NCBI GenBank assembly: GCA_031763465.1
Contig: JARFOE010000115.1
Location: 9,825,473 to 9,884,511, forward strand
Reading direction: 5' to 3'
Length of the DNA stretch: 59,039 bases
Origin: Squatina squatina
Lineage: Eukaryota
Shown: piece by piece, positions 3,255 through 52,956 of the stretch
Layout of the letters: each line of letters opens with the position of its first letter
Numbering within the stretch: the first letter of the stretch is position 1
Made by a program: the position numbers and the translations under genes
The notes under the pieces: model-generated
Told to the model about the DNA's origin: nothing
The model's input: only the letters and a program-made list of their open reading frames with translations
Databases searched by the model: none

Positions 3255-4091
3255 ACTTAATAAATGATTAAAAATAGACACTGCCGTTATTTTATTGGTC
3301 TTTATTTCCCGTTTTATTAACTGAAATAACCCAATTACTTTCAGAGCATATTTCTTCATAGCTATATTTCTAACAGACAATAATGAGCAGAAAGGATGGA
3401 CTCATTATAGATCTTAGTCTACACAGGATCATTCGGTATGAGGGAAGCTCAGCACAAAAACACACAATAATGTGTTAGAACCCATGCAAATTTTTGAGCT
3501 CATTATTATTGTATTAGATTACTATTTGATTTGCTTTCAGTCTTGTTAATGGCATCTTAGTAATTTCCTTTACTGGTTGAGCCTCTGCTGCACAGCTGGA
3601 TGAATTATGGATTTTACAATTGTTTTAATTCTGTTAGTCATGCCTCCTCAAAACTATGTAATTAATTTATATTAGATGTCCGCTGTTCAATCCGATAGAG
3701 AGTTGTATTGGAACTCTTCATACACAGTGTTTTCTTTGGNNNNNNNNNNNNNNNNNNNNNNNNNNNNNNNNNNNNNNNNNNNNNNNNNNNNNNNNNNNNN
3801 NNNNNNNNNNNNNNNNNNNNNNNNNNNNNNNNNNNNNNNTTACTTTGAACACAGAAGTAAAAAACACCAATGATATGATATTTGTAATATAAAATAATGC
3901 AACTGTAGCAACCTACAGCTATAAAGAAAAGGTTATCTTACTTCGCGTAAAATACAGAAGAAAATTATCTGCCAACCAATAACAATTACATATAAACAAA
4001 AAATGCTGGAAAAACTCAGCAGGTCAGGCAATAGCAATTACATTACTGAAACACACCAAGTCAGCCATGCTGCTGAAGACGCTTCACTCAC

Positions 4092-4266
4092 CAGTTAGCC
4101 CAGAGGAGGGAGGATTACGCTGGATTTCTTCAGCTGTGTTCTCCTGCAAGATGTCCCAAAGCTGCCACTGCATCTTGGGGTTTAAGATGTAGAAGGGCTG
4201 GTTTGGATTCTTTTCTCGATACCTTTTGTAATTCTCAAAGAAATTATAGTCTGGATGATTGAACCA
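4092..4266 (-). CDS. ST6GAL1: Beta-galactoside alpha-2,6-sialyltransferase 1, internal 175-bp exon leading into sialylmotif S
   Basis: [59 protein letters not shown] with AG acceptor (4267-4268) and GT donor (4090-4091). PPSSG begins sialylmotif S. ST6GAL2 not formally excluded. Confidence 0.85.
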
Positions 4267-4962
4267 CTGGGGGGAAAAAAGTAAATGCAGAAATGTTGAG
4301 TATTGTGTTGTAGGATGGCACTTGGTTTTCTCTCTTTCATTGACAAATTTATTGTTGGATTTAAAAAAACCGAATTGTGCATTCTGAGGTACAGTCACTG
4401 AAGTCCCACCATAAGGTGAGTGTCCTTTTAAAATACAGTAGATATAAGCCCATTATAAAATTTTCATGAGTCACATTTTGATCTTCACCTAATAAGAAAT
4501 ACAAGTGACGCTTTAAACAGTCCAACATCACTACCATTTTGCAGCAATGCATTTTGCAACAACCCTTCCTGCACTCGGTTGTTTCAGGCCCCTTCTGCTT
4601 TGCATGGACTAACTCCAACCTGACTGGGTTGGGGGTATAGCAGAACGCTGCCACGACATGAGGAGCCACCTAAGCAAAGCTCATCACAGGCGAGGTGTTN
4701 NNNNNNNNNNNNNNNNNNNNNNNNNNNNNNNNNNNNNNNNNNNNNNNNNNNNNNNNNNNNNNNNNNNNNNNNNNNNNNNNNNNNNNNNNNNNNNNNNNNA
4801 ATTAGCAAGTTTTTTTAAAGCTGTCTGTGAGATTTTTTCTAAGTGTCACATTGCTCGACTTAAAAAAAAAAGACTCCCCAACTCGTCCCTTAGCACCAGA
4901 AACTGAGGGCAGTCTAATTGGGTGCCCTAAATCTCCAGTCAGATGTTTCGAGTAAAACTCAC

Positions 4963-5497
4963 CTATTTCGCTTCCCAGCCTCGATCGGAGGATAGAGCCA
5001 GCTGATGCCACGACAGCGCACGTCTTGAATGGTCCGAGTGCTTGAGTAAGATTTCTGGTTGGTATGTGCTCCCGCCAGTCAGATGTCGTGAAGGGCTCAT
5101 CTCCAAACTGAATGGACGCCACTTGGATCCTCTGTTTCAGTCCACATAACAGTTCTTTGCTGCTGAGCTTCTTTGGCTGTCTTGTTCCAGTGAAGTTCAC
5201 AGCGTACTTATTCATTGACGCATAATTGTTTTTAACAGTCCGTAGGCGGCGGTTGAGGTGGTCCGAAGAGCTGTCTTCATTCCAAATCATCCATGAATTC
5301 CATTGTTTTTTAAACGCAAGCTTTATCTTTGTGGGTTTTGCTGCTGTGTTGGAAATGATTGATGGTTCCTTCCCTTGTTGTCCCCTGGATAAATCCCTGG
5401 TAACTACAGCCGCGGGCAGAAGATCCTTTGAAGCAGTTGTTTCTTTGAACTGGATTTCTGATTTGCTAGATCCTTTTATTTTGCTGTTATTTGTCTT
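4963..5497 (-). CDS. ST6GAL1: ST6GAL1 first large coding exon (stem and start of sialylmotif L); 5' end lost in gap
   Basis: ...WNEDSSSDHLNRRLRTVKNNYASMNKYAV...ELLCGLK...PFTTSDW...LGPFKTCAVVASAGSILRSRLGSEI|G. CAVVxSAGS...LGxEI is sialylmotif L. GT donor at 4961-4962. Two small middle exons and the last exon are not visible, presumably in gaps. Confidence 0.87.
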
Positions 5498-5755
5498 NNN
5501 NNNNNNNNNNNNNNNNNNNNNNNNNNNNNNNNNNNNNNNNNNNNNNNNNNNNNNNNNNNNNNNNNNNNNNNNNNNNNNNNNNNNNNNNNNNNNNNNNGGG
5601 ATGGTTCTTTTAAATATAAATATGCAGAGAAAGTGCAGTCTCTGTCCGTTCAAATATTTGCCCTATTCCCCCGGTCTGTGTGAGGAGGAAAAGCGAGCAA
5701 TCTGTTTATATTCTGACCCAGTGGGTGAGGCCTGTGGAACCCGCTCTGTGTGGAG

Positions 5756-5905
5756 ACTACTTACATTGAGACACCAAATCCAGGGACAACTTACATTGAT
5801 ACACCAAATCCAGGGACTATGTACACTGAGACACCACATCCAGGACCGCTTACACTGTGACACCAAATCCAGGGATCAGTTATACTGAGACACCAAATCC
5901 AGGAA
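5756..5905. repeat. Minisatellite, ~29-bp unit, about 5 copies
   Basis: Tandem (t)acactgagacaccaaatccaggga(c) units read directly. Confidence 0.85.
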
Positions 5906-6399
5906 CCACTAACCTCAGCCCCTAAGCACTAACCCTAACCAAGGATTATTGATAGGGAGCATTGCAGGAGCTGAAGGCCTGATAAAGAAAGTATTTGAAA
6001 CAATTATCTTGATTAAAGAAATAATGCGAGATATGTTAGCAACAAGAGATTAAATCAATGACACCATCAAAATCATCAATGAGAAATACAAATATCAGAA
6101 TATTTCAAAGGCTATCGAATCCAAAGAGGGTTAAATGATACAGAAAATAAAGGATTTCAAATCTTATGCAAGACAGTTCAATAAAAAGATGGTTCAAAGG
6201 AAAGTCAGATGAGTATAAAGTGAGGCACTGCAGTTCAGTCTATTACACCCACAAGCCATGTACTCAAATGGAACAAGCTTTAGGTTTAATATGGTAGAAA
6301 GTGAACTAGGTGAGATGTGATATAAGTTAGAGTAAGAAAAGTCAGCAACAGAACATTAATTAGTCTCTGATCTCTTTGGGTGAGGGGGAGAGGGCCGGT

Positions 6400-6660
6400 T
6401 AGAGGCCCTCCTCGTGAGCTTGCTCCTGGGCCTGGCCAAGTTGGCCATCAACAGATCCAGGCAGCGGGTGACCGAGGGGGTCATTCGCCCTGACTGCCTG
6501 CCTCTCTTCTGCGGCTACATTCGCACCTGGGTGTCCCTGGAGATGGAGCACGCGGTGTCTGCCAGTACGCTTGAGGCCTTCTGTGACCGGTGGGGGACTG
6601 GAGTGCATCATTGTGGGGATAATCGGGTTTTAATTTAAGTTTTGGTTTAGTTTAAATTAT
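6400..6660 (+). mobile_element. Tx1/L1-clade LINE 3' fragment
   Basis: LLLGLAKLAINRSRQR...CLPLFCGYIRTWVSLEMEHAVS...EAFCDRW resembles the C-terminus of Tx1-like ORF2, followed by a T-rich tail. Confidence 0.6.
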
Positions 6661-7229
6661 GTTTTTTTCACCCAAAAAAAATCCCCTGTGCTGCCATCTC
6701 TATTGTATGTATTTAATTAGGTTTTCAGGTTTTGAATAAACTTGTCTATTTATAGCTTTTAATCTAGCTAATAACCTTCAATTTAACCTTGTTTATTAAA
6801 TTGTTATACACTTTCAGTCTTTACTGTAGCTTAGCCCTCAGTCCTAATTTATCCCTATGTTACTTTTAATGTATATTTACCATGATAATTAATTTTAATG
6901 TTTTCCCAGCTCTTAAAACACATTTAGAGGGAGAAAGGAAAAATACTCACTTACCTGCTTTCTAGTGTCACTTTCTTAAACAGAACCTCATGCCACTGTT
7001 CCTACTGTCTGTTCCTTTGTAGCTACTGCTCTTCTTCATGCTCTACCCCTCTGGATTTGGACTATGATGAAATGGCAGTCATCCATTTGTCTTGCTATTA
7101 TTGATAACTAACTCACATGTTGAGATAAAGTTGATACATGGTTTTTGTGCAGGTGTGGCTATTGGCATTGAATGCTGGAGCTGTCTGTCACTCCTACCAA
7201 TTGAGAGGGCTAGTATTGACACTGCTGTC

Positions 7230-7535
7230 CTAATAAATAGGATTATAGAGGTGCTGGAGATGCAAAAAAATGACTTGAGGATGATTCCACAATGAGAGGT
7301 CAGGAAAGATTGAATAACTGGGGCTCTTCTAGAAAAGGCTGAGGGAGTGACTATAGAAGGGTTTGATAGGGTAGACCTTTCTGGAGAGGCCAAAACTAGG
7401 GGCCATAATTATAGGCAAGTCACTAATAAATCCAACAGGGAATTCAAGAGAAACTTCTTTATGCCAGTGGTTAGAATGTGAAACTCCTACCACAAGGAGT
7501 AGTTGAAGGATAGCATAGATGCATTTAAAGGAATG
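7230..7535 (+). mobile_element. Degenerate CR1 LINE 3' fragment
   Basis: CR1-like segments aactaggggccataa...gagaaacttcttt...gtggttagaatgtg...catagatgcatttaa. Confidence 0.7.
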
Positions 7536-7744
7536 TCAAACTTTCAAGGAGAAAGGAATGGAAGAATATGTTGGGTCAATTTGGGTGGAGATAAAATTAA
7601 CAAGGGAAGGAAGATACTGGTAGATGTACTGTATAGGCCCCCANNNNNNNNNNNNNNNNNNNNNNNNNNNNNNNNNNNNNNNNNNNNNNNNNNNNNNNNN
7701 NNNNNNNNNNNNNNNNNNNNNNNNNNNNNNNNNNNNNNNNNNNG

Positions 7745-8442
7745 CATATGAACAACACACACGTTACTAATGTGCAAATTGGCCAGCAACTTGTGGTGAG
7801 GAAGAGATGTACGTGAACTGTGAATCGCCAGAAATTACTGGAAAATTTGCACCGCTCTACCATTAGCTTCACAAAAACGGCATGAAGTTGCTGCATTTGT
7901 ACATTAATTGCTGATTAAATGTGCAACAGAATGCTAAGTTTAGTAATTAACAGCGCAAATACCCTTTTAATTAAGTAATAATTGTTAATGACTGCCAATC
8001 AACCTTGTTTCCATAGAAAGTGAACAATTAAAAGTAGAGTGTCTCATTCCTTCAAGTTGTGAATTGTAGTGGGAGATTTTAAAAATATCAGTTTTTATCT
8101 TCTTCATTTGTCTCCTTTTCCTTGCCCTCTTAATCCAACTTTCTTTCCCTTTCTTTATTTCTCTTTCTATACCTGATTTGACAATGAATTCACCCACTCT
8201 AATTCACTTTCCTTCTCATTCCTTCCTCTGTTTATTTTTCAATCCTTTAATCTCATTGCTTAAGGAGATACATGCAATGGTCATTCACCAAGGCCCCAGA
8301 TGTTTAGTTGCCCCCGCTGTGCCATTATCAGCTTGCATTTCAGCAACTTTGTGGGAAAAAATTTTAAAAACTTAAATATGCACAAACAAGTCTAACTAAC
8401 GGGGCGTTCTACGAGATGCCCTGCTCCAGCTAAATTTGGGCC
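7745..8442. repeat. Dispersed repeat (probable non-autonomous DNA transposon); related copy at ~23735-24048
   Basis: Shared blocks ctctttct(a/g)tacc(t/c)gattt(g/a)aca..gaatt..ctctaattca..tttcc and tatcagct(t/c)gca(t/c)tttcagcaactt, both copies ending in tt(t/c)(t/g)ggcc. Confidence 0.6.
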
Positions 8443-8844
8443 ATAACATGACCATGATAGGATAAGCAACTCTGAACGGAATGGGCTTGACAAGCTGAAG
8501 ATTTTTCCTCACTGCAGACTTTACAATCTTATGAAATAATAGCTGAAATTACAAAAAGGAATTAAAATTACCTTCAATTCTTTTACTGACAATACAAATC
8601 CCAGAAAATAGCATTAATTCTGGTTATATTGGTATATTAGTGTACTGGTATACTGATTGTCATCACAATTCCATTATGGGTGGAAAATTCAGCAAAGCCC
8701 GCTAATCTACCGTTATGCACTCTCAGTGTGAAAAATACCACCAGGAGCTGCGATCTCACCAATCATGGCAAGACCGGGGCGGCCGGGGTTGGTGGCGGGT
8801 GTCAACCCCACTCCTGGATACAGCCCGCACTGTGTGAAGAATCT

Positions 8845-9042
8845 TCATAAGAACATTAGAAATAGGAGCAGGAGTAGGCCATTCGGCCCCTCGAGCTCCA
8901 CCATTCAACAAGATTATGGCCAATCTTCTACCTCCACGCCATTTTCCTGCACAATCCCTATGCCTTTAATATCTAGAAATCTATCAATCTCTGTTTTGAA
9001 TGTCCTGAAATACTGAGCCTCCACAGCCATGTTGGGTAGAGA
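8845..9042 (-). mobile_element. CR1 LINE 3' end
   Basis: cataagaacattagaaataggagcaggagtaggccattcggccc is the shark CR1 3' tail (reverse). Minus translation SLPNMAVEAQYFRTFKTEIDRFL. Confidence 0.85.
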
Positions 9043-9142
9043 NNNNNNNNNNNNNNNNNNNNNNNNNNNNNNNNNNNNNNNNNNNNNNNNNNNNNNNNNN
9101 NNNNNNNNNNNNNNNNNNNNNNNNNNNNNNNNNNNNNNNNNN

Positions 9143-10439
9143 AGTGTATGGGTCACAGTTCCTTGTTGCTGATCTTTCATAACAATAAGGGTCACGTTCA
9201 GGATCACAATTTCTGTCGTGTTCAGGTACATGATTATATTCTTCATTTCAATGACAGTTGGGGTCAGATGGGTCACAGCCAGCACGTGGCTGAGAATTGT
9301 GAACTGGATAACAGGCTGGATGATAATAGAGATCACAATCATGACCTTCCTTAGTTTTACCTTTGTACATGGATTGAGGCCTGCGACAGTTACGATCATA
9401 CTCGGGATCACAATCAGGGTCTTCAACAGCTTGGTCAATAGATTTCACATTTTGACGACAGTTGGGGTCACGGTATGAATCACATTCAAATTCTTTTTTA
9501 CCACCATATACAGGTCTATCAGGACTACAATAAGGGTCATATCTGGGGTCACATTCAGAGTCTGGTGCAGGCTCATCCTTAGGATGATATGCCGATTGAC
9601 AGTTGCGATCATAGTATGGGTCACAATCATATGGATTTTTATAGGCAGCCACAGTGGAGCGGCAATATGGATCCTTTGCAGTGTCACAGGCAGGGAAAGC
9701 AGTTAGGGTCTGAGTAGGGATCACATGATTGCTTTAGGTAGGCAACCAGTGCCAGACAGTGTGGATTGTCTGGATCATATGGATTACAATACTGGTTTAC
9801 TAACTGAGCATATTGTGCATAAGTGAAGGATTGCTGGTAATATCCTGACAAGGTGCGTTTAGAATATGATTCAGCGTGGCAGTAAGGATCTTTCTGGGGG
9901 TCACATGACTGTACCTGGGTTCTGCAATATGGATCTTTCTTTGGATCACAAGGGTACGTTTCTGCTCCATAGTATGGATCTTTTTTTGGATGACTAGAGT
10001 ATGCGTCTGCTCTGCAGTATGGATCCTTCTGTGGATCACAAGGGTACGTTTCTGCTCCATACGAAGCTTTCTTTGGATCACTAGAGTATGCTTCTGCTCT
10101 GCAGTATGGATCTTTCTGTGGATCACAAGGGTACACTGCTGCTCTGTAATATGGATCTTTCTTTGGATGACTAGAGTATGCTTCTGCTCTGCAGTATGGA
10201 TCTTTCTGTGGATCACAAGGGTATGTTTCGGTTCTGCAGTGTGGGTCTTTGTATGGGTCACACTGCTTCTGAGTGTAAGCTACTTGCTTCTGAAGAACAA
10301 GTGGCTGACAATCGGGATCTTTTGTTGTGTCACATTCCTCTTCACGTAGACGCTGCAGGAATGCTTGATATGACCGCTGGGACTCATCTCTGCTCTTGGC
10401 CTGAAGATATTGTAGATAAACTTTGTCCAATTCATATAT
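9143..10439 (-). CDS. and1/and2-like: Actinodin-family (And1/And2-like) protein, main repeat exon; frameshift near 9690 and in-frame TGA at 9248-9250
   Basis: AG acceptor at 10440-10441. Begins IYELDKVYLQYLQAKSRDESQRSYQAFLQRL, like the actinodin ELDRxYLxYLQxKxRxE..RSY block, followed by about 17-18 C(D/N)PxxDPxC-type motifs (CDPYKDPHC, CDPQKDPYC, CDPYSDPNC, CDPRYDPYC, CDPERDPYC). Frame 1 stops at 9684-9686; repeats continue in a shifted frame and past the TGA into the gap. Confidence 0.85.
9880..10262 (-). repeat. Coding tandem repeat: 45-bp (15-aa) unit with 90-bp higher-order periodicity
   Basis: Alternating units AETYPCDPQKDPYCR and AEAYSSHPKKDPYYx, seen in DNA as repeated gcagtatggatctttctgtggatcacaagggta. 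Confidence 0.9.
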
Positions 10440-12403
10440 CTGGAAAATGAGTAAGTAAAATGGTGGATTACAGAGGCTGCTGCAAAACTCTGGCACATTT
10501 TACACTTTCTAATTTGTATGTACTGGCAAAATAGTTCTTGCTCTTCTTTGATAAAGGGCAATTTATAATTTCCTTATTCTTCACTTTAGGCTTTTTTGTG
10601 TCACTGCTCCTCAACCAGGAGGTTCAGCAAGCCTNNNNNNNNNNNNNNNNNNNNNNNNNNNNNNNNNNNNNNNNNNNNNNNNNNNNNNNNNNNNNNNNNN
10701 NNNNNNNNNNNNNNNNNNNNNNNNNNNNNNNNNNGGCATAATGTGCTTGGATAAAATCCCTCTGCTACTTTAACAAATTCAATTAGCCTTTTAAAAGAGT
10801 AGGAGAGAAGGCAAGCTAAATCAAGAAATAATCATTGGTTGACAGCAAACTCGGTTTTAAAGTTTATGGATTGTAGCAGGGTTGGAGAACTGAGGGAGGT
10901 CTACAATTTTGAGCATGAGTTTTAGTATGATGTGATGTGATGAGTCTTAATTTCAATACAGTGTTGATACAGATGGAGCAAAGGTGTGTAGTTTGACATA
11001 TTTGCGCACTTTTATACTTATCTCAAATTTTGGGAGATCGATGCCAAATGTAGCTTCGCGCATTGCTCTCTCGTGATTATAGGAGCCGGTGTCTCTGCTC
11101 TGTAGGCCCACTGGACATCTATTTGGAAAATGGAGATTGCATGCACAGTGCTCTTGGAGCGGGGGAGGGCTAGAATTTTAACTCCCAGTTGGGAAGCCAG
11201 CAGGACACCTGCCCGGATTTTCTGTGGGAGGCTTAGCAGGTTTCAAATTGGGGGGCCTTCCAAATCAGCGAAATAAAATCACGTCACAGCGCCAATGATA
11301 TCAGTGGGCTGCGACTTTTGTATGATATGTAGGTCTCTGTCTGCTTGGTGTGGGCTATCCTCCCAAATGAGTTTCTGTTCAGTTAAAATGGCACAGGGCC
11401 AGAATGCATTGGGAATGGAGGGCAACTTCCCCTCAACATTTTAATTACCCATCTGTCCCTTTTGTGTCAGGAGGGCCGGGTTAAAAGCCAGCTTTTCGAC
11501 CTTAACCACTAACTTTGGAAATTAATTCCATTGCTCTCTGGTGCCAATTAGTATACAAAAGCAATCAAAACACGGTTTCTCAAAAACATCTCTAATTTCA
11601 AACCATATTTAGCTCAAGGGAATGATAAAAATATATGGTACGGTCATACAATTTGCTCTGGAGTGACATTTATTTAATCCACTATTCAGATTGTAAGTTA
11701 GAAAAATATTTCTCTTCAGTTTACACATATAACTGAAGGATAGAATAACCCCCTCAACATTTGAACATACTACAATATCAAATTATGCCTTCAGGCAGGT
11801 ACTTTGCAACTATACACCTTTAATGCAGTGGTTAACTAAATAGTAAATGTGAAAAATAGGCTTATGATATTCAGGGGCATTTTTATCAAAGATGTTGATT
11901 ATACTGAATAAGTATAATTTTGATGGTCACAATTTCAATAAGACTGGTTTAAACATGTAAAACATTGGGAACTACATAAAAATAGCTGATATGCAAAAGA
12001 GCATTCCTAAGAGATTGGCGCCAAGATGAGCAAGGCAAAGCTGAGGGGATGTCCAAGAATGCAATCTGGAATATAGCAGATCTTTTTCTGGGGTGACTTT
12101 ATTACATAGTATAGAATACATTTTCAACAAATAGTTCAGTATACAATATTGTACCAAAGAAGCTGACTGTTAAATCCTCTTTGTATATGGATACTCTATT
12201 ATGTTTGCAAGTCATGTAATTCTGCATGCAAGTGTACTGCCATATTTGCTAATTAAATATACATCAATCGGCTTTGAAATAGGAACAAATTGGATATTCA
12301 ACCAGATGTGGTGCAGATGTGTACCATTTAATCACCATAAATGCAAGAAGAAAATAGAAAATCTCTAATAAAATATTAAAGTGGTTAAAATATTTCCACT
12401 CAC

Positions 12404-12476
12404 CGGGTAAGAACAAAACGGTTAGAACCACAGTAGCCAGGATCAAAGAGAATATGTTCCCCTTTGTGCAGCCCAT
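12404..12476 (-). CDS. and1/and2-like: Actinodin signal-peptide exon
   Basis: MGCTKGNIFSLILATVVLTVLFLP plus phase-1 donor (G|GTGAG, GT at 12402-12403). Upstream acceptor ttttccacag at 12506-12507 implies a non-coding exon 1. The intermediate exon(s) presumably lie in the gap at 10635-10734. Confidence 0.75.
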
Positions 12477-12683
12477 CTTAACCTATATTTTAACACCTGT
12501 ATATACTGTGGAAAAACATAATAAAAGATGTGTTTAATTGCCTCTTGTGATGTCGAGTGCAAATTGATGGCACATTTCCATGTNNNNNNNNNNNNNNNNN
12601 NNNNNNNNNNNNNNNNNNNNNNNNNNNNNNNNNNNNNNNNNNNNNNNNNNNNNNNNNNNNNNNNNNNNNNNNNNNNNNNNNNN

Positions 12684-12950
12684 GACCTTTCAGGAGTGAA
12701 ATTAGGAAACACTTCTACACACAAAGGATGGTAGAAGTTTGGAACTCTCTTCCGCAAATGACAATTGATGCTAGAACAATTGTTAATTTTAAACCTGAGA
12801 TTGATAGCTTTTTGCTAACCAAAGGTATTAAGGGATATGGGCGAAAGGAGGGTATATGGAGTTAGGTCACGGATCAGCCATGATCTCATTGAATGGTGGA
12901 ACAGTCTCGAGGGTTCAATGGCCTACTCCTGTTGCTAAGTTCCTATGTTC
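12684..12950 (+). mobile_element. CR1 LINE 3' end
   Basis: PFRSEIRKHFYTQRMVEVWNSLPQ...FKPEIDSFLL, followed by the 3' UTR tail ggcctactcctg...cctatgttc. Confidence 0.85.
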
Positions 12951-13569
12951 CACTTTTTTCATTCATCATGAAAAATCTTAAACAGAGAAGAACACTCAAT
13001 CCATTTATTCATTTCATGAATTTAGGTTGCAGCAATACAGTTTTATACGCTCTCTTCCCAGGACTTGCTTGCCCTTTATCACCGATTAATATGCACAAGC
13101 TGCATTCACAGCATATTCCAGTGAGGAAAATTGGGAAATCTCTTTCTGTAATTTCCCTTCATTTGTATAGTATTCTTGCTTTTAATGAATCCGGCCAATG
13201 GCTAGAAAATCTATCCTATATATTTCTAATTGGCTGTTTTTTGATGGTAGAATCACAAGTCTGATGATCTCAATGCCAGATAAGGAATTCCCCTCACTTA
13301 AAAAAAGCTATAAACCTTTCTGCGGTTGCTGCTGGGTTTTGCAATCCCAGTGCAAATAAAATGTCAAATATTGTTAAAATGGTGCACAAGTCTGAAGTTT
13401 CAAACTGTATAGCACTCTCAGTTCTGGTCACTGCAGCACATGGGAAACATCCAAGCCCTGGAAGGGTTGCACAGAAGGATGATGGGACTTCCCTATTATC
13501 AGAGGAAAAGATGCAAGTGAGAGAAGACCTTATACAAGATACTAAGTGGCACAGAAAAAGGTTACCATG

Positions 13570-13815
13570 AGCACTATTCCACATTAAAAACCATGACTGC
13601 CGAGCAAAGGGGACACAGGTGCAAACTGGTAAAAAGGAAGTCCAGGACTAACGTCAGGAAGCACTTCTTCACAGAGTGATCAATATTTGGAATGGTCTTC
13701 CAAGTAGGGTAATGGAGGCAAACGGAAATGTTTTAGGAGGCAGCTGGATATTGTGAGGGAGCTGAGCATTGGCTCCTATGGAAAGATGAGACAGATGAGC
13801 TGAATTGTCTCTCTC
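13570..13815 (+). mobile_element. Degenerate CR1 3' fragment
   Basis: ggggacacagg...aggaagcacttcttcacagagtgatcaatatttggaatggtcttcc corresponds to RGH...RKHFFTQRV..WNxLP. Confidence 0.65.
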
Positions 13816-14453
13816 ATCTGTACTTATTTTTGTGGATATACTCAAAAGGTGTGCATTTAGCATCTGAGTCAAACACCAGGCGAAAATTAGAAACCTCCAC
13901 AATAAGTTTAATACACTTCACAGCTCTGTAATATTCCCAGCACCTATTTTTGAACAAAACATATCCTATCCAATCTGTAGGTTTTCACGCACACAACAAT
14001 GATAACGAAGTGGTTTTCTGCCATTAGAATTAAGAGCAGGACTTTACTCAAATAATTATAAGCAACCTCTGTACCCCCCCAGCAGGTGTTTTGCAAAACT
14101 CAACCCTTCAATTAATGTTTAAACTGTGATTAGGATCTGAAAAACCTCAACAAAAATTCTGCATTCATGATGGAATGGCAGGTTTGTTGGTGGGAAAAAA
14201 AGCTGCAACTTCTCTGTACTATCTATTAAAAAAAACACAAGATTTTGTTACATTTACTTTAATAAAATAAATTCACAATTTTAAAACACAAAAAAAAGTT
14301 AACATGGTGATCAGGATTGTAAAATGTGGGCTCTCTGTTTGGAAAATGTCCTGCCGTCAGCATTTGTCCATCGAAAGGCTGCTGGCCATTCTTTTCCGTG
14401 TCTCCATGTTTGAAGATGTAATGTGGTATAGATGGTGAAGTGTGGAAAACGAA

Positions 14454-14491
14454 TCACTGAATATCGTCATCATCAAAGAGGTCTTCAAAAT
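14454..14491 (-). CDS. Candidate terminal exon of a small secreted acidic peptide
   Basis: tttag acceptor next to a gap, then phase-1 (x)FEDLFDDDDIQ*. A candidate ATTAAA polyA signal lies on the minus strand at ~14258-14263. Confidence 0.4.
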
Positions 14492-14675
14492 CTAAANNNN
14501 NNNNNNNNNNNNNNNNNNNNNNNNNNNNNNNNNNNNNNNNNNNNNNNNNNNNNNNNNNNNNNNNNNNNNNNNNNNNNNNNNNNNNNNNNNNNNNNNTGCT
14601 CTCAGCAATGACTTTTCAAGTTTACAGCAGTTTTGAAGTTAAGGAAGTTCCAGAAATAAATGTTATTAAACTTAC

Positions 14676-14727
14676 GTATATTCAAGATGAGAAATATAAA
14701 CAGCCCAATATAGACAAACCACTTCAT
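14676..14727 (-). CDS. Candidate signal-peptide exon of an unnamed small secreted protein
   Basis: ttttacag|TCAAAATG (acceptor 14733-14734, A at -3), MKWFVYIGLFIFLILNI, then a consensus phase-1 donor C|GTAAGT (14674-14675). Confidence 0.55.
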
Positions 14728-15085
14728 TTTGACTGTAAAATAAAAGCATAATAATTAGTCATCCAGTCAGTCTCAGCATCTCCAAATATTTAGCATTGGT
14801 CACAAATTAAACTTTTTATACATAGGGTTTGCAGATAAGTTTGAAAGTATTAAATGAAATCACATTTCATTTACTGATCTAAGCTTGAACTTGCACTTAA
14901 AGACTTCCAAATAAACTTTCAATACGTACATTTTTAGTCAGGGATTGCACTGAATGAGAAAAAAAGGTTTAAACTAAAATTACGCTTCAGACCTTGAATG
15001 TGTGCTTGACTAGCTGTGGGACAAAATGTTTAAATTGGCTCAGTCTAAATTAGAGGAAGTAAACGTCACTTCTCTTGCTCAAAGA

Positions 15086-15095
15086 TTTTTTTATA
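15086..15095 (-). promoter_or_regulatory. Possible TATA box of the small secreted-peptide gene
   Basis: TATAAAA on the minus strand, about 100 bp upstream of a possible non-coding exon donor (gaagc|gtaatt near 14983). AT-rich background makes this weak. Confidence 0.25.
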
Positions 15096-15324
15096 ATGTA
15101 CCCTTTCTATGACTAGGCACGAATATGCTGCCATTTGTGAACAGCCCAGTTCGTTTTACATCTAACAGCGCCCTCTTAAGTTAAAGCTGAAAATGTATTT
15201 TTAAAAGGAGAAAAAAAACCTGTANNNNNNNNNNNNNNNNNNNNNNNNNNNNNNNNNNNNNNNNNNNNNNNNNNNNNNNNNNNNNNNNNNNNNNNNNNNN
15301 NNNNNNNNNNNNNNNNNNNNNNNN

Positions 15325-16031
15325 TATCATTGTGCGGAATGAGAATTCTTCAGTGAAATGTATAGAAAAATGAGCAGACAGGAATAAGGTGCAAGGCAAC
15401 AATACATTGGAGGGGTTTCCAAAGCCACCATAAATCAAAAGAGTGACACGTAAGCACTTAGGAGAGTGCTGCTCAGAATCCACAGATCGCGTTACAGCTT
15501 GGAACCCATTCCAACCCATCTGTTCTTTTATATGAGACAGGCAGCATATGGAATTCCTTTCTGCCCTTATGACTGGTTCCTTACAAGCTGCTAAGTCCCT
15601 CTGTATCTCTCCCAGGTGGGTGCTGTCTGCAACAATGGCATGTTGAAAACAGTGGCAGTTTTCACATTAAATGGTATCACACAGGGGAAGGAGTCCCACT
15701 GAACACTGGGATGTACCTATGTTGTCAATGTTTTGGAGAGGATTTCCTTTGTTAGGTATTTCCATCAAAACCAGGCACATGCTCTTTTTGAATGCAGAAT
15801 GAGGAAACTTGCACTGACTTATCATTACACGCAGCAACCAGAGGAACTTCTACCCCATCTCACTACGTCACGACAGGAATAGGGAGCAGTTATTTTTCTA
15901 CGTTAATATTTTCTACATTATAACAGTGACTACACGGCAAAAGTACCAATGTATTGTTGCCTTGCACCTTATTCCTGTCTGCTCATTCTTCTATACATTT
16001 CACTGAAGAATTCTCATTCCGTACAATGATA
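15325..16031. repeat. Inverted repeat, ~86-bp arms (15325-15410 and 15946-16031)
   Basis: The arms are near-identical reverse complements; both translate as LPCTLFLSAHxSIHFTEEFSFRTMI on opposite strands. Confidence 0.9.
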
Positions 16032-16257
16032 AGCTGTACACGGCAGACTCCCACATCAATAAAGTGCTTTGCTGTAAAGTGTTTTGGGACATCCTGTGGT
16101 CATGGAAGGCGCTATGTAAATGCAAGTCTCTCTTTCTTGATTCATGCTCAGGTAGCTGATCCTTGCAGGAGTGCCCCGACCGAGCATTGTATTTTATGTC
16201 AGCATAATAATTTTTTTCCCCCTTTTAGAATCAGCCATCATTCATGAAGAAAAGGAA

Positions 16258-16333
16258 ATGGAGAACATGGTGCAGAAGCAGACAATGGAATTCTCAGATT
16301 CATTTAATGTTAACATCTTCATACTTTACTCAG
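16258..16333 (+). CDS. Putative leader exon of Ig receptor gene A
   Basis: MENMVQKQTMEFSDSFNVNIFILYS plus phase-1 donor CAG|GTAATG. Splices in frame to VFHLFVVCGA, completing a plausible signal peptide. The start ATG is uncertain. Confidence 0.5.
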
Positions 16334-16836
16334 GTAATGGATGTTAATGGCAGCAACCCATCCTTATGTTTATAAGAAAAGATATTGCTGAGTAATTCAC
16401 ATGTGTAGAAGCAACATTGACCATAGGAACATGCCCACTTACCTAAGCCTGAAGAATGTAGATTCTGATTGAAAGCCCAAGGCTCAGAGACCCCTCCCAA
16501 ATATCCGTATTATCGCTGCTGGAGTTGATACTGCTCCAAACCACGTAGGTGCGCAGCACAGAGAATTTCAGCCTCCACTAACAAGTCAACCCATCTAGCC
16601 CTTACCAAGGAGCCCTTGGCTTAGTTGACAGATTACTGAGTCTGCCACAGAGGATCAAGCTGATTCTAATTTCCCATCTCTGGGTATTTTTTTCTTCAAG
16701 CAAACTCAAGACCAAAAAAGACCCTGGTTACCTACCTTTCTATGCACCCTCACTAGTTATGAATTGATGGTACATTTTGTTGTTCTTAGAGTAGCAGCAA
16801 AAATTGACATGTGAAATCTATGCTTGTGTTTTCCAG

Positions 16837-17196
16837 TATTCCATTTGTTTGTAGTGTGTGGAGCTGAATTGTTTGCCAGACCTGATACCATCACTAACGT
16901 CACTGCAGGAGAGGAGGTCCTGTTCCCGATAGAGCACCAAGGCAAAGACGATCAGTATGATGTAACATTTAGATTGAGATATCCATTGGCCTTTATGATT
17001 TTAGCATGGAAGTCCAGTAATCCGTGGAAACTGCACATCGTACACCCACTGTATGAACACCGAGCTGAAATCCGCGGACATTTGGTGGTGCTGTACAATG
17101 TACAGATTAATGACACTGGGGAATATGAAATACAAATTAATTATGGGGCAGAACTGAAAAACCGGGACCAAAGTACTTTCAGGATGCAAGTATTTG
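16837..17196 (+). CDS. CD2/SLAM-family-like receptor A, Ig V-set exon
   Basis: 360 bp, phase 1-1, ttttccag acceptor and G|GTAAGT donor. NVTAGEEVLFP...ILAWKS...LYEHRAEI...VVLYNVQINDTGEYEIQI lacks the canonical B/F-strand cysteines, as in CD2/SLAM/CEACAM/HEPACAM N-terminal domains. Confidence 0.85.
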
Positions 17197-18254
17197 GTAA
17201 GTGTTCAATACTGGAACTTCTGCTAACTTTCAGGATTGCAGTTCCATTGTAGCATTTACAAAATTCAGTATTTTCATTGAAGCCTGAAAGGGCTCACGGT
17301 GTAAATTGTGTTTGATCACTTTTAAATAGTTTTTGTATGAAGTAAATAACTTGCTACAACCCTTGACTTAATATCAGTAATACAGAATATACTTTTTGCA
17401 TCAACTTATTATATGCAATGTACTTAACAAAAAAAACAAAAAAATTTACTTTAATCATTAATGCCCTTCTGAGTCCACTCATCCAAGCTTGTTCCTGCAG
17501 ACCAGTTTTGTAAGATTTTGCCTCTTGTGCAAACGGAGCAAATGTTGACACAGCCACCAAACATCCTTGAATAAGGGCCTATGACATGGGAAAACAAAGT
17601 TAGCATTTTTGCACCAACAACTTTTTCACATTTACGGTTAGTTGATAGTTTCCCAGTTACAACTGAGCCAAAACCTGTAACCGTGAATAATAAACTCACA
17701 TAACCCTCGGTCACATAACCATTGGGTTTACCAAGTCAGCATGCTGAAACCATACCTTGTCCTTGGCACTGAGGGTGGCATTATAGACTTATTGGCTGAG
17801 AGCAAAGCAAGTTCCTCATGGGGAGGATTAATTTAGCATTTCAGCTATCCCCATTACAAACATAGAATAGGAAAATGCTACACCATTTTCAGTCACTGTT
17901 TTTGGACACACTGGGTTATGTGTAACAGTTGTAGATAAACTAGAGACATGACATTCAGAAACATCTTGAACAAAACCATCTGCATTGCTTATGAGCTGAT
18001 TAACTGCCATTGCTGATACTTGCATTTTATAGAATATCTCATCAGAACTTGGCTAATTAAAGGAAATCGGAAAACTACTTTGCATTGTTTCATTCATTCT
18101 CTGCAGCAGAACAATTCCTTGGGCCAGAACATTATCAATATTAATGATCATACTGTATCAGAAATTTTTGATTGAGGAACATTTTAAAATAAAGAGACAG
18201 GACCGTGTATGAGGGAATGCATCAGACAATACTAAAGCTGGTCCAGTATACGTA

Positions 18255-19340
18255 ACCACGCTGGACCAGTAAACATTTAGCTACAACTTTTGTTGTATGA
18301 ATCTTTCCATCTCTTTCCAAAAAGTGCTATTTGCACATTGCCAAAGTTGATATTTTCCAATGTCATGTTTTACCGTTTGGGGCCTTCCTCACTCATTGGA
18401 ACAATATACTCGCCGGGAATTCCCTCTGGGAATCTCTCAATCAGCTGCCAGGAGTTCGGTGGAACCCACCGTTGACATGTGGAAACGGAGTTTCTGCCAA
18501 ACCTCTGCCAAAGTTACGGCTGCGGACTGGGACAAGCCCGAGGAAATTCCCGCCACAGGTGACAATCCTCGCAGTATGCTACTAAAATATTAATTGTCTT
18601 CAGCATAATGCATCAACTGGATCTGTTAACATCAGGACCTCTCTTATTGGAAGTGCAGCCTTTAAGATTAATCTGTTTAAAACACCAAACAAAAAGGATA
18701 GACTTGCATTTGTGTAGTGGTTTACCANNNNNNNNNNNNNNNNNNNNNNNNNNNNNNNNNNNNNNNNNNNNNNNNNNNNNNNNNNNNNNNNNNNNNNNNN
18801 NNNNNNNNNNNNNNNNNNNNNNNNNNNGCATAGAAGCCACACTGGACCAGTAAACATTTAGTTACAATTTTTGTTGTATGAATATTTTCCATCTCTTTCC
18901 CAAAGCCGCTGTTTGAATATTACCCGAGTTGACATTTTCCAATGTCATGTCTTATCATTTGGGTCCTTCCTCCCTCATTGGAACAACATAATTGCCAGTA
19001 ATTCCCTCTGGGAATCTCTCAATCGGCTGCTGTAACGTTACCAGGATTTCGGTGGAACCCACTGTTGACGCGTGTAAATGGTGTTTCTGCCAAAGGTACG
19101 GCTGCGGAGTGGGAGAAGCCCCGAGGAAATTCCGCCGCAGTTGACAATCCTAGCGGTATGCCTTCAAGAAATCCACTGTCTCTTGCATAATGCATCAACA
19201 GGATGCATTTGTGAACTACAAAAACAATGCATCAGTTAATATCAGGACCTCTATTCTATTGGATCTGCAGGCTTTAAGATTAATCCGTTTAAAACACAAA
19301 ACAAAAAGGATAGACTTGCATTTGTGTAGTGGTTTATCAC
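18255..19340 (+). repeat. Diverged direct duplication of about 480 bp (~18255-18727 and ~18836-19340) in an intron
   Basis: Both copies run from ctggaccagtaaacatttag to aaaaggatagacttgcatttgtgtagtggttta, with many substitutions and indels, separated by an N gap. Confidence 0.85.
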
Positions 19341-19437
19341 ATCTCTCAGAAATGTCTCTCAAGGCATCATATAAAATTAATTACTCTAAAGTGCAATAAC
19401 TATGTTACGTAGGTTAATTATCATCTGTGTATTTCAG

Positions 19438-19719
19438 AACCAGTTTCTCAACCTGTGATAGTGATTCTTGGTAACTGTGTGAGTGCACCAAATATCACTT
19501 TGAGCTGCTCTGTCACCAAAGGAACAAATGTCATAATCCACTGGGAAAAGGTGTCCTTGTCTGGTGTTATCAATGAGACATATGATGGGACAGTGCTTGT
19601 GATAGACTGTGTTACTGAAGAGGAGCAACATGCGTACAGGTGCACAGCAGAAAACCCAGTCAGTAATGCAACCAGCAACAAAGTGACTGCCGACCTACAT
19701 AACTGGACTAATCCCAATG
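19438..19719 (+). CDS. CD2/SLAM-like receptor A, Ig C2-set exon
   Basis: 282 bp, phase 1-1: [38 protein letters not shown]...IDC...[11 protein letters not shown]. The PVSxP...C...W...YxCxAxNPVS pattern is typical of this family. Confidence 0.9.
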
Positions 19720-20302
19720 GTGAGTGATTAGAAAAATGATCTAAATTACAACAGCAACTCTACTTGTAGCTTTCCTTCACAAGAATTCAGCTGAGAATGT
19801 GGAGTGATGATGTTCAAATGAATACATTCCTCTATATCCATGGCTAATACAGCTGCAAAATCTGTCAAATTCTGTAGGTGGGGGGTACAGGCAATATTCA
19901 TCTTATCGAGAGATGGAGTGCCCAACTGCTGCAGGATAATGGAGGCAAATCCACACTGTTATTGCCTGATTCACAAATTCTCCAAATCACAACTTGTACT
20001 ACTTGTTTGTGGGTGTATCTGCACACAGGACCATGTGCTCTGTGTCCATATGCTGCTCCATTCAACAGCAGGTGGAGGATAAAGGAGTTCTTGTATCCAG
20101 TCAGAGCTGACATTTCAACTCATCTCTCTTCATTGGGTGTCAAGTATTTTATTTTTCGAGCTGTCAGTCTGTCCTGTAACCACAAGTTCAAAACTACAAC
20201 TGCATTTTGGGCCAGAAATTTACACCGTTCAAAATAAAGCAAAAGGTAATTAGTGTCTCTGGGAACAGGGAGAGAATCCACTTGCCCTTATTCAGAGAAA
20301 AA

Positions 20303-29853: not shown

Positions 29854-31182
29854 ATGTCCAAAGTGTCTAAGTACAGCGTGAAGTCCAAACATTCAGCAGC
29901 CATTATAAAAGCCATGAGTTTTGTTCCAGGTAACATCATAATAGAATATTTTAGCACAGATTATAACCACTAATCACTGATTATAACCACCAGACACTTA
30001 TTCATTTGTCTTTTTCCAGTATTCCACCTGTTTACTGTTTGTGGAGCAGTGACACTGGCCACACCCAATACAACCACTGAAGTCACAGTAGGAGAACAGG
30101 TCCTGTTCCGTGTAAATCCCCAAGGTGGAAGTTGGCATGGAGTAACTTTTCATGCCAAAACTCCATCTACTATTATTGCAGCATGGACAATCAACAATTC
30201 AGTTGAACTATGGACTATATGAACACAGACTGTAATGGAACATGAGTGGTTCTGTGGTGTTGTATAAGGCCCAAATCAGTGACAATCGAGAATATGAACT
30301 AGAAATCAACTACTACCACGCAGGAGTGAAAGGCAATGATGTCACGTTTTTTGAACTGTGCGTGTTTGTTAAGTACTGATCAGTAGTGATAGATCATACA
30401 AACACTCATTCATTGAGTGCTCCATTAGCATTCCTGCATCAAAATAAAATCAGCTTGAAGCCTAATGTTTATCGCCAAGCCATGAAATTCATTGCACTCT
30501 GTTAAAATCAATTACTGAGCAAACATGGTTCACTTACTTCAGCTATTCACTTACTCAGTCTTTGCATTTTGCCAATGCTTTTCCTACCGCTCGTGTTTTC
30601 ATCATTATCTTTTTATAGTGCAGCCACGAAGCATTTTGCAAAGTCTTCCTTCTGTCAAGGATGGACTAGTCTGTTTTCTGAAGGAAAGTGAACATCAACA
30701 TTGTTATAAAAACATTGCTCTATCTAATAATAAGCATTAATCACCCACTGCAGTTATTGCGACATTGTTGTTATTTTAATTCACTTAAAGCAGCCTATTC
30801 AATTCACTTATAAATAAAAAGACAAAAACTGCAGATGCTGGAAATCTAAATCAAACATATTTTTAAAAACTAACGGGTTTCATGCCCATTATTCCTCTGT
30901 CTGTTTCAGAATCAGTTTCCCAGCCTGCTGTGAGAATTATCAGTGACTGTCCAACTCCAAATGTCACTCTAAGCTGCTCAATCTCTAATGGAACAAATGT
31001 CACATTTCATTGGAGAAAACAATCCCTATCTGGAGCCATTAATGGTACATACAATGGGACAGAACTAGTGATAGACCGTGGTAACAAAGAGGAACAACAT
31101 GTATACAGATGTGTAGCAGAGAACCCAGTCAGTAATGCAACTAGTGATCCAGTGAGGCTCGAACTGTGTGCTCGGAATAAAG
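29854..31182 (+). pseudogene. CD2/SLAM-like receptor B pseudogene, paralog of receptor A: putative leader 29854-29929, disrupted V exon 30020-30368, open C2 exon 30910-31182
   Basis: V exon FHLFTVCGAVTLATPNTTTEVTVGEQVLF...IIAAWT has a frameshift near 30210, an in-frame TAA at 30233-30235 and a donor changed to TTTG|TTAAGT. C2 exon ESVSQPAVRIISDCPTPNVTLSCSISNGTNVTFHWRK...YRCVAENPVSN is clearly paralogous to 19438-19719. Confidence 0.8.
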
Positions 31183-31289
31183 GTGAGAGATTAGAAAAAA
31201 AAATCTATCCTGCAAAAGCTACTCTTAATATTTATAATTTTTCTGCCATTAGATTTCAAAGAGATGACTTCCTCCTTCACTTGGAGTTT

Positions 31290-31890
31290 GTCAGCTGTAG
31301 CTCGGTGGGCAGCACTCTCGCCTCTGAGTCAGAGGTTGTGGGTTCAAGTCCCACTACAGAGACTTGAGCACAAAATCTAGGCTGACACTCATTGCAGTAC
31401 TGAAGCAGTGCTGCACTGTCAGAGGTGCCGTATTTCAAATGAGATGTTAAACTGAGACCCCATCTGCCCTCTCAAAGATTTAAAAGATCCCATGGCACTA
31501 TTTGAAGAAGAGCAGGAGAGTCCTGGCCAAAGCTGCTGCTAATTTTATTTTGGGTGCGTGGCCCCTTTAAGGGGCTATAGGCCCATTCAAGTTACCCTGC
31601 ATGTGCATTTTGTTTCCATTATAACTGCATTGAGTGGCCCACGTGGGACCTGCAGATCCCAGCTTAAAGGGAATATAGGTCCTGGCCAATATTTATCCCT
31701 CAACCTGCATCACTAATAATAGATTATCTGGTCATTATCACATTGCTGTTTGTGGGTACTTGCTGGGTGCAATTTGGCTACCACATTTTCTACAACACTG
31801 ACTAAACTTCAAAAGTACTCAATTGGCTGTAAAGTGCCTTGGGATGCCCTGAGACCATGAAAGGTGCTATATAAATGCAGGTCTTTCATT
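31290..31890 (+). mobile_element. Near full-length Deu-domain SINE with an internal insertion
   Basis: tRNA-like head (tagctcggtgg A-box, ggttcaagtcc B-box), Deu core and 3' tail ggtgctatataaatgcag. Interrupted at 31531-31678. Confidence 0.85.
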
Positions 31891-36162: not shown

Positions 36163-36868
36163 CTGTGAAAGAAGAAGTGAAAATCAAGTTTGATTAAGTT
36201 TCTTTTCAAAAATGCACAGTCTGAATGCAGACACCAACCTTGTTTTACACAATGCAAACACACACTCTCAATCATCATTGAGTATCACTGGGCAGTAACC
36301 AGGAGAAGATGATTTTCTCACTATTACAGTACTTTGACTTTCTAATCCCACTGCTAGTCACCTACCTTATAAAGACTACGTTTCTCTACCTAGATTGTTA
36401 TGATCAGCAACTGTTTTTGACGAAGGGTCATCGACCTGAAACGTTGACTCTGTTTCTCTCTCCACAGATGCTGCCTGACCTGCTGAGTATTTCCNNNNNN
36501 NNNNNNNNNNNNNNNNNNNNNNNNNNNNNNNNNNNNNNNNNNNNNNNNNNNNNNNNNNNNNNNNNNNNNNNNNNNNNNNNNNNNNNNNNNNNNNNNNNNN
36601 NNNNNNNNNNNNNNNNNNNNNNNNNNNNNNNNNNNNNNNNNNNNNNNNNNNNNNNNNNNNNNNNNNNNNNNNNNNNNNNNNNNNNNNNNNNNNNNNNNNN
36701 NNNNNNNNNNNNNNNNNNNNNNNNNNNNNNNNNNNNNNNNNNNNNNNNNNNNNNNNNNNNNNNCTAAACATATCATTGCCATAGCTCCTATTAGGTTTAT
36801 TGGAATACTGTGAGAAATTACTTGGAAACGGAAAATCAGAATTCTAAAATAGCTAATCCATTACTTAC

Positions 36869-37581
36869 TGATGACTCGCTGTCTCGAATTATGAAATCGC
36901 CATCAACTCCCCTTTCATTCAGAGCCATTTCTCCTTGGTGCCTTGTAATCTTTCCATAATACCATGGACTACCCGCAAACCTGCCAGTGGTTGCTGCTCC
37001 TATGTAGTCACATCGTGGTGGTGTTGGACCAACACTAATGACTGGTGGTGACGTCTGCACAATATTCACATAGTTCTTGGGTACCAGACCCACTTGGCCA
37101 TCAGCTTTCCTACATTTCCACCATTCTGGATCATTTTCTGGTTTCTCAACAACATCCATCACTTCACCCTTCTCGAAATTAAGCTCCTCTTCATTTGAAG
37201 AACTGAACGGGTACAAAGCCTGCACAACGTGCAGTACTTTGACATTGTGTGCGTTGATCACAACTGCTAGTCTCTCTGTTAATGAGCCCACAGGATCCAC
37301 TGTGGTGCCCTCGGGTTCCTCCATAACGTAATTTGAAGGGAACCAACCAGTTTGTCCATTATAACTACCCCTCCACCATCCATCGCTGCATTTTTCCATG
37401 ACAGTAACTTTTGTCCCTTTAACCAATGAAAGCTCATCATCTCTCTCTTCCGTGTAGTTGAATTTGACATAAGCAGGAGCATTCAAGTCATACAGACGTT
37501 CCCCATTGTCAGCATAGCCATCGGCATCTGCATTGGATGCAGTGTCTCGAATACTTGGTTTCCGTTTCACTTTTCCAATTC
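36869..37581 (-). CDS. NCK1: NCK1 middle coding exon (second and third SH3, start of SH2), 713 bp
   Basis: [10 protein letters not shown]...[16 protein letters not shown]...WFPSNYV...[21 protein letters not shown]...[10 protein letters not shown]...FIIRDSESS with canonical splice sites. Confidence 0.97.
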
Positions 37582-51094: not shown

Positions 51095-51338
51095 GGGAGA
51101 TGGTGGTTGGGGAGAGCGAGATGGTGATTGGGGGGGGAGCGAGATGGTGGTCAGGTGGGCGAGATGGTGATCGAGGGGAGCGAGATGGTGATCTTGGGCG
51201 AGATGGTGGTCGGGGGCGAGATGGTGGTCAGGTCAGCGAGACAGTGGTCAGGTGGGCGAGATGGTGGTCGGGGAGAGCGAGATGCTGATTGGAGGGGGCG
51301 AGATGGTGATTGAGGGGGCGAGATGGAGGTCGGGGGGA
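51095..51338. repeat. G-rich minisatellite, ~19-21-bp unit gcgagatggtggtcggggg
   Basis: About a dozen tandem gcgagatggtg units, truncated by a gap. Confidence 0.9.
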
Positions 51339-51708: not shown

Positions 51709-52956
51709 TTATTTGATGGGGGAAATTGTTATCTCCAGGGAATCCTGCCTGCTACTCCGGTTGACCCAGTAATGCTTGTAACCAGTCAGTGCGAAGACGC
51801 TGAAGACGATTATTGATCCACCAATAAGGTCATACATGGTTGGAAACATACGGAGGACCAGCAACTGGAGTATCATTGCCACTACAATTTCTAAGTGTTG
51901 GACCGTGCTAACTAATGCTGGATGGAATCGATTTAATGCGTAATATACACCTAGGAAAGCCACTGTAGAACAGAAACAGATACCTAATAGATATCCCCAG
52001 GTTTCTCCATCCAACGGTATAATAGGCTCTTGTAGGATAAACATTGTGGAGGCACCCCAAACTGTACCTGTCCATCCAAAGGTGAAAAGGGCAGTCCACA
52101 TGCTAACCTTTTCCTTGATAGCTCTGTAAATGATCATGGCCAGCGCGGTGGTCAACCCAGCCATTACTGTCATAGTATAGCCAAAGGCTTCCTTCCAAAG
52201 GCCAACCAATGAATTATCTTCATCAACGATATTGGGGATCATCACCAGGCAAAGGCCAAAGATGCTGCAGACCACTGTGACAATGTCGGTGTAGTCCAAG
52301 CATTCGTCTACAAGTAGAAAGGCCAGAATGGCACTGAAGACTGTGGTGGTGGCTCNNNNNNNNNNNNNNNNNNNNNNNNNNNNNNNNNNNNNNNNNNNNN
52401 NNNNNNNNNNNNNNNNNNNNNNNNNNNNNNNNNNNNNNNAAAGAAACAGGCGCATCCTGTATCCATTGGGTCCAAAAGGATGTTCACTGCCATAGCAGAC
52501 AACGACAACAGAGAAGACCTGGAGCACGGAACGAATGAAGAGGAGCTCCAGGGATGGCACTTTGGACCGATCAGCAGCAAGTCGGGTTATTAATGCAACA
52601 CAACCATGGGCCAAGGCAGCCCCAAACAGAGCTACCCAGGTTATTCTTGGTGTGCTGACCACACTTTGTCCAGCATTTTCTGTTTGTTGTTCCACCCCTT
52701 TATCTTTCTGTTCTTCTGATAAACTCTGACGAACGTCAATTGTCCCAAAGAATGTTCTTCCTCGTTTTTTAGTGTCACCCAGAAGTTTTTTCTTTGGGTT
52801 GTCTTCAGCATAATTTCCACTGTCTTGGTCTGTTTCATCATAGCCCTCTTCTCCAGGCTGTGGGTAATGTGCCGTGTATTTCACAGTCACTGTGTTTGGG
52901 TGGATTTTCACTCTCTTTTTCGAGGGGTATGTTGGCTTAGTAGGTGAAGATGCCAT
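51709..52956 (-). CDS. SLC35G2: Solute carrier family 35 member G2 (TMEM22), single coding exon with an internal N gap
   Basis: [35 protein letters not shown]...[13 protein letters not shown]...[12 protein letters not shown]...[17 protein letters not shown]...SPIK*. EamA-type multi-TM protein. Acceptor tttgctgcag at 52980-52981 just upstream of the ATG. Confidence 0.95.

Follow-up and report, generated by a model that had tools for sequence, protein, structure and literature searches.

A probable and1/2-type actinodin gene with a long, interrupted repeat array in Squatina squatina

Actinodins are defined by a C(N/D)PxxDPxC repeat in PMC4764851, which also lists and2 and and3 of the elephant shark and regards the elastoidin fibres of actinotrichia and ceratotrichia as homologous. 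ScAnd1 marks the paired and median fin folds of the catshark (PMC4778128), and And1 is among the fin-specific genes of bamboo-shark fin buds (PMC7932699). These sources already document actinodin in three cartilaginous fishes (elephant shark, catshark, bamboo shark) and its expression in the fins of the catshark and the bamboo shark. According to PMC13120675, elastoidin combines collagen with a Tyr-rich component, actinotrichia are absent from zebrafish and1;and2 double mutants, and zebrafish And2 has 10 repeats. That actinodin makes up the non-collagen fraction of ceratotrichia has already been published as an inference, and in the literature covered, with most subscription papers outside that coverage, we found no protein-level proof of actinodin in ceratotrichia, nothing on chondrichthyan actinodin repeat number and no broken shark and gene. 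Repeat counts, elephant shark included, are drawn in Fig. 5 of PMC4764851.

The bamboo-shark fin-bud And1 contig and the gene models g10785 and g27100 are assigned to coelacanth XP_005991231, which is match P0018 of the present searches (PMC7932699, Onimaru 2021), and g10785 is read here as chiPu_0010785 through the pairing of identifiers in the same source. The coelacanth accession in the text of that paper is XP_015216565, differing from its supplement, and its expression table has no row for XP_005991231. With both g10785 and g27100 assigned to coelacanth And1/2, either one gene has been split into two models or the bamboo shark has a further paralogue.

The locus compared with these systems lies in a 59,039-nt stretch of Squatina squatina DNA (the window), in which the following features were located.

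13041–13047, minus strand: candidate promoter element TATAAAA, seen in the sequence.
12404–12505, minus strand: first coding exon, with acceptor AG at 12507-12506, ATG at 12476, leader MGCTKGNIFSLILATVVLTVLFLP and a phase-1 GT donor at 12403.
10635–10734: N gap, likely site of the missing middle exon or exons; the bamboo-shark counterpart has 66 residues including RSKR.
10335–10439, minus strand: start of the last exon with the conserved non-repeat actinodin block, IYELDKVYLQYLQ...RSY, behind a strong acceptor AG in phase 0, opening with IYELDKVYLQYLQAKSRDESQRSY.
9684–10439, minus strand: frame A, 251 aa, nine Cys-pair modules (seven strict) and three Cys-less copies, ending at TGA 9686-9684.
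9879–10262, minus strand: tandem amplification, 45-nt units paired as a 90-nt unit, between ancestral modules 2 and 3.
9687–9695, minus strand: frameshift site, CCCTGCCTG, with an additional C or a second copy of CCTG.
9251–9691, minus strand: frame B, 147 aa, seven modules, with the anchors KDEPAP..CDPRYDPYC, DPDCDPEYDRNCR and GKTKEGHDC.
9413–9436, plus strand: catshark ScAnd1 reverse-primer site, a 20/24 match, in frame, with DQAVEDPD here and DQGVQDPD in the primer.
9248–9250, minus strand: in-frame TGA within the array in the sequence as assembled.
9143–9247, minus strand: 35 more codons with one strict and one cut module, resembling the bamboo-shark ERTASENCDPYT units.
9043–9142: N gap; neither the remaining part of the exon nor a later stop codon is present in the window sequence.

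The first coding exon had been proposed as a signal-peptide exon, and this is borne out by its start codon, its GT donor and a hydrophobic leader of 24 residues, 20 of which are identical to residues 1-24 of P0005 (chiPu_0010785), so that it is predicted by homology to be signal-peptide-like. The acceptor AG upstream of the ATG agrees with the structure of zebrafish and1, in which exon 2 contains the start codon (PMC13120675, PMC6497306). Separated as it is from the first coding exon by a LINE-like fragment and an N gap, the TATAAAA element can be tied to the gene only as a guess. With a phase-1 end to the leader exon and a phase-0 start to the last exon, a direct join from 12404 to 10439 is impossible. 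When middle residues 25-90 of three homologues were compared with six frames of 10440-12403 and of 5000-20000, only chance-level local scores were obtained, and the basic RxxR site and the WYxxHxDFW region are absent from the sequenced intron, which holds a 100-N gap. The 100 N of that gap (10635-10734) do not give its true size, since 28 of the 33 gaps in the window are exactly 100 N long. No further exon was detected downstream of the gap at 9043-9142 by tblastn with four homologues; as assembled, the gene lacks its 3' end and sequence amounting to two middle exons.

Full-length homologues match Augurin/ECRG4 (PF15187) in their N-terminal domain (P0005 with 33.2 bits and P0009 with 30.4, against a cut-off of 27), whereas the window segments gave no match; only the end of the domain lies in the window, and most of it is expected in the missing exons. 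Augurin is not known to have a repeat array, and no paper connecting actinodin with ECRG4 was found in the literature covered.

Elsewhere in the window, alpha-2,6-sialyltransferase exons at 4087-5200 (minus strand), of which 4805-5200 matches ST6GAL1 structures (E 6.5e-13), form the downstream neighbour of the actinodin gene. An NCK1-type exon (SH3-SH3-SH2 start) lies at 36839-37657 (minus) and an EamA-family transporter frame, which we take to be SLC35G2, at 51712-53010 (minus). Two-Ig-domain genes, weakly SLAM/CEACAM-like, form a tandem pair at 16815-19727 and 30004-31364 (both plus), and the first exon of the second copy carries a frameshift near 30210 and a stop, the mark of a dead duplicate or an assembly error. 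An 86-nt inverted copy (15325-15410 and 15946-16031, 98% identical) begins exactly at an N-gap edge and looks like a scaffolding artefact, a direct duplication of ~600 nt (18256-19339, 78-93% identical) flanks the gap 18728-18827, and tandem repeats occur at 5755-5910 (30 nt) and 51097-51338 (~21 nt).

The identity of the gene was approached through both reading frames of the last exon. In a search of 1.84 billion representatives, the top match of frame A was Chiloscyllium punctatum chiPu_0010785 (E 4e-37); four of the 12 frame A matches were actinodin-type, and the other eight, four of which were inspected, were discarded as repeat-composition matches. Residues 1-83 of the last exon share 61/82 identities with chiPu_0010785 and 29-39 with each of seven bony-fish proteins, which places the window among the cartilaginous fishes. 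The likeness to chiPu_0010785 also takes in the leader, the first three modules and an ERxAxxNCDPYT unit; the bamboo-shark protein differs in having 13 modules with a 25-residue repeat unit of its own amplified, in lacking the anchors found at the locus, and in possessing the middle exons and C-terminal tail that are missing here. It was the only chondrichthyan relative recovered, in searches that did not compare frame A with proteins of length 138-440 and of which one missed its own member P0009. Frame B gave 26 matches among 132 candidates, headed by Neoceratodus And1/2 and then gar actinodin1, with 14 of the 26 named actinodin1, 2 or 1/2.

The non-repeat block noted in the first-pass annotation proved to be of actinodin type. 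A block of the form ELDxxYLxYLQxKxR..RSY, a feature of And1/2 membership, stands before the repeats, and over 35 residues it gives local scores of 75-140 in 7/7 actinodin-type proteins (shuffle maxima 38-52) and 23-26 in 2/2 unrelated repeat proteins. The block and the anchors align to an HMM built from 24 bony-fish sequences, with a block domain E of 2.6e-12. Three of four And1/2 anchor patterns are matched, all downstream of the frameshift and in frame B; the GKTKEG anchor is present in every bony-fish protein compared (16/16 teleost, 5/5 non-teleost). The fourth pattern (15/16 teleosts, 5/5 other bony fishes) has no regex match at the locus, where a diverged module occupies its place in the alignment. 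The order of modules is that of lungfish And1/2 on either side of the 45/90-nt insertion. The 20/24 match of the ScAnd1 reverse primer has a chance expectation of ~4e-4 in the window, and the forward primer matches weakly (14/20, six mismatches, one of eight such sites). Scyliorhinus canicula ScAnd1, a gene known here from the primers in PMC4778128 alone, has a forward primer encoding GRAEPC that resembles the CRAE.. units of the locus, and its fin-fold expression is known whereas the locus is known from DNA alone. No second actinodin copy was found within the window.

A gene of the and3/4 type, or an unrelated Cys/Pro repeat protein with the same motif, is a very improbable reading. The Atlas clusters nearest to frame A by name are Actinodin3 (0.82) and Actinodin4 (0.78), which are weak leads (frame B gave none), and a Pfam search with three window segments returned no significant family. 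The unnamed protein P0008 (543 aa, Thr/Ser-rich and apparently unrelated) carries many C[DN]PKKDPxC repeats but has no actinodin block, so that the motif by itself is no proof of membership. Against this, And3/4 are described in PMC13120675 as much shorter and with fewer repeats, compared with 17 or more modules here, and the non-repeat block and anchors fit And1/2 and not P0008; the reading is largely ruled out. The And1/2 assignment is based on anchors and array length, in a comparison containing no And3/4 sequence and no tree, and the block, the anchors and the chiPu_0010785 match uphold the original call of a chondrichthyan actinodin. We consider it probable that the locus is an and1/2 gene of a cartilaginous fish, with an elastoidin-fibre role in its lineage.

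The repeat array had been described as about 17-18 motifs with three degenerate ones, which stands under a relaxed count: the last exon contains 17 complete C-x6..9-C modules, an eighteenth that the gap at 9142 cuts short, and three copies without Cys. Only nine of the 17 conform to the strict motif C[DN]PxxDPxC. These nine are the only strict motifs in the whole window, and none appeared in 30/30 base shuffles. The composition over 433 codons (Tyr 11.8%, Pro 12.0%, Asp 11.5%, Cys 8.3%) agrees with the Tyr/Asp/Pro/Cys-rich character previously assigned, but the supposed single chain does not exist in the assembly, the frameshift and the TGA having been overlooked. The tandem amplification contains nine units (eight of 45 nt, one of 42 nt) alternating as a 90-nt unit, two of them identical, with pS 0.48 exceeding pN 0.18 over 28 non-independent pairs; unit lengths that keep the frame, together with pS > pN, suggest that the region was coding during its growth. 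The growth of the array by in-frame 45/90-nt duplication is recent. At 9386-9412 (minus), the DPDCDPEYDRNCR module precedes the GKTKEG module, while in bony fishes such a module closes the array; it is a duplicated or moved module.

Under one counting rule, which leaves out five partial, fused or unnamed rows, there are 8-10 modules in 16 teleost proteins, the range that the first-pass annotation gave for zebrafish And1/And2, 11 in bowfin, 12 in gar and bichir, 13 in bamboo shark, 14 in coelacanth, 16 in lungfish and 17 or more in the window DNA. The DNA of the window is therefore clearly above the teleosts and barely above the lungfish, and its excess of modules is due to one insertion (9879-10262). 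Long arrays are not shark-specific, given the counts in lungfish, coelacanth, gar, bichir and bowfin, and the lungfish protein (11.3% Tyr) is as rich in tyrosine as the locus, with 8.3% in coelacanth and 4.6-7.3% in teleosts; a long array as a cartilaginous-fish feature is overstated. The comparison makes long arrays the rule outside teleosts rather than an invention of sharks, and teleost arrays look reduced. Neoceratodus forsteri Actinodin1/2 (A0A7H0XJU6) and Latimeria XP_005991231 share the block and module order with the locus; unlike it, they lack the 45/90-nt insertion, have two extra modules at the position of the frameshift, keep open frames and carry the DPDCDPEYD module last, where the locus has such a module before GKTKEG. 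Teleost And1 and And2 (zebrafish and1, and2) share the block, motif and anchors and differ in module number, in longer Pro/Ala linkers and in their lower tyrosine share.

No uninterrupted reading frame runs through the array as assembled. Frame A meets the frameshift, frame B follows as far as the TGA, and 35 further codons lead to the N gap, so that translation covers nine modules, a teleost-like number, and leaves the conserved And1/2 anchor modules out of frame. Splicing does not offer a bypass of both lesions, since no donor upstream of the frameshift pairs with an acceptor past the stop. The claim of an array larger than in teleosts accordingly holds for the DNA and not for the chain translated from the assembly, which does not demonstrate a larger-than-usual protein. 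The product would have nine modules with a real frameshift, 16 with a real stop alone and at least 18 with both lesions being errors.

That both breaks are real, with a product of ~341 aa and nine modules from either a shortened working allele or a decaying gene, we hold to be close to an even chance. The frameshift would have come first, leaving the remainder untranslated, and the TGA would have been acquired later, a single real frameshift accounting for tolerance of the second lesion. The CCTG-CCTG duplication is slippage-like, a nonsense change would be an unlikely consensus error since few substitutions create stops, and with both lesions in the last exon nonsense-mediated decay need not act, as is generally understood; the nine modules also equal a teleost number. 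On the other side, 8/8 complete modules past the frameshift retain both Cys, the anchors kept across bony fishes are intact here, and the catshark probe, known here from its primers, spans the matching region. The zebrafish and2 mutant, moreover, was designed by removal of 8/10 repeats (PMC13120675).

Alternatively, the breaks may be errors of a fragmented short-read assembly and the true gene may be whole, with at least 18 modules, somewhat above lungfish; we regard this as a serious possibility, though one that falls well short of an even chance. The 59 kb of the window are broken by 33 gaps, with contigs of 1.2 kb at the median, the frameshift leaves a linker of 2-3 residues where the shortest of 244 homologue linkers has six, and bony-fish modules 5-6 are missing at precisely this place, as expected from a mis-join. 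None of the four anchor patterns occurs in the bamboo-shark model, and the second model, g27100, is assigned to the coelacanth protein that g10785 also matches, so that this locus may be prone to poor assembly in other species as well. A frameshift and a stop likewise interrupt another exon of the window, although that exon may just be a dead duplicate. Two independent errors within 450 nt are required, and two other frames of the window, those of the NCK1 exon (819 nt) and the EamA transporter (1299 nt), are uninterrupted, a control that is partly circular because both were chosen as open frames.

An intermediate case, in which the frameshift is an error and TGA 9250-9248 the true end of a protein with 16 modules and no acidic/Tyr tail, is improbable. 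The CCC run at the frameshift site is in its favour, as are the conservation of frame B as far as the stop and the lack of any And1/2 anchor beyond it; a perfect module past the stop, like bamboo-shark coding sequence, and the tail that homologues have beyond their last module speak against it. Within the reading in which the frameshift is real, it is conceivable but rather unlikely that the gene still works, a Tyr-rich module having been amplified upstream and the C-terminal modules of all examined bony fishes dropped, with the module number about kept.

By analogy with its homologues, the protein would be secreted from fin-fold ectoderm and mesenchyme, the leader being seen at the locus and the expression known from relatives, and cleaved at a basic RxxR behind an augurin-like domain whose exon is missing here. 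The mature chain would consist of short Cys-closed loops, each module presumably closed by its own disulfide, with Tyr/Pro/Asp-rich linkers between them. The loops may bind collagen fibrils or one another and so bundle the needles, the tyrosines may be cross-linked, and co-assembly with collagen would yield the elastoidin fibres that sharks have as ceratotrichia. A PDB search with the family profile gave 0 matches. It is a reasonable inference that the protein of this locus is built into ceratotrichia; the first-pass annotation put the case for an expanded ceratotrichia protein too strongly.

The locus adds one chondrichthyan and1/2 sequence, with middle modules that are missing from the bamboo-shark model, and long arrays outside teleosts fit, and in that sense support, the accepted view that ceratotrichia are homologous to actinotrichia. 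The locus would gain in importance with a real frameshift, since and1/2 would then have been naturally truncated or lost in a fish, which would test which modules elastoidin needs and would parallel the loss of and1/2 in tetrapods. Should the shortened gene also be a working one, then, together with the different unit amplified in the bamboo shark, shark fibre proteins would turn over their repeats freely, and module count rather than module identity would matter for fibre assembly. In its stronger form, the same reading would make this a living chondrichthyan in the course of losing and1/2, as tetrapods did.
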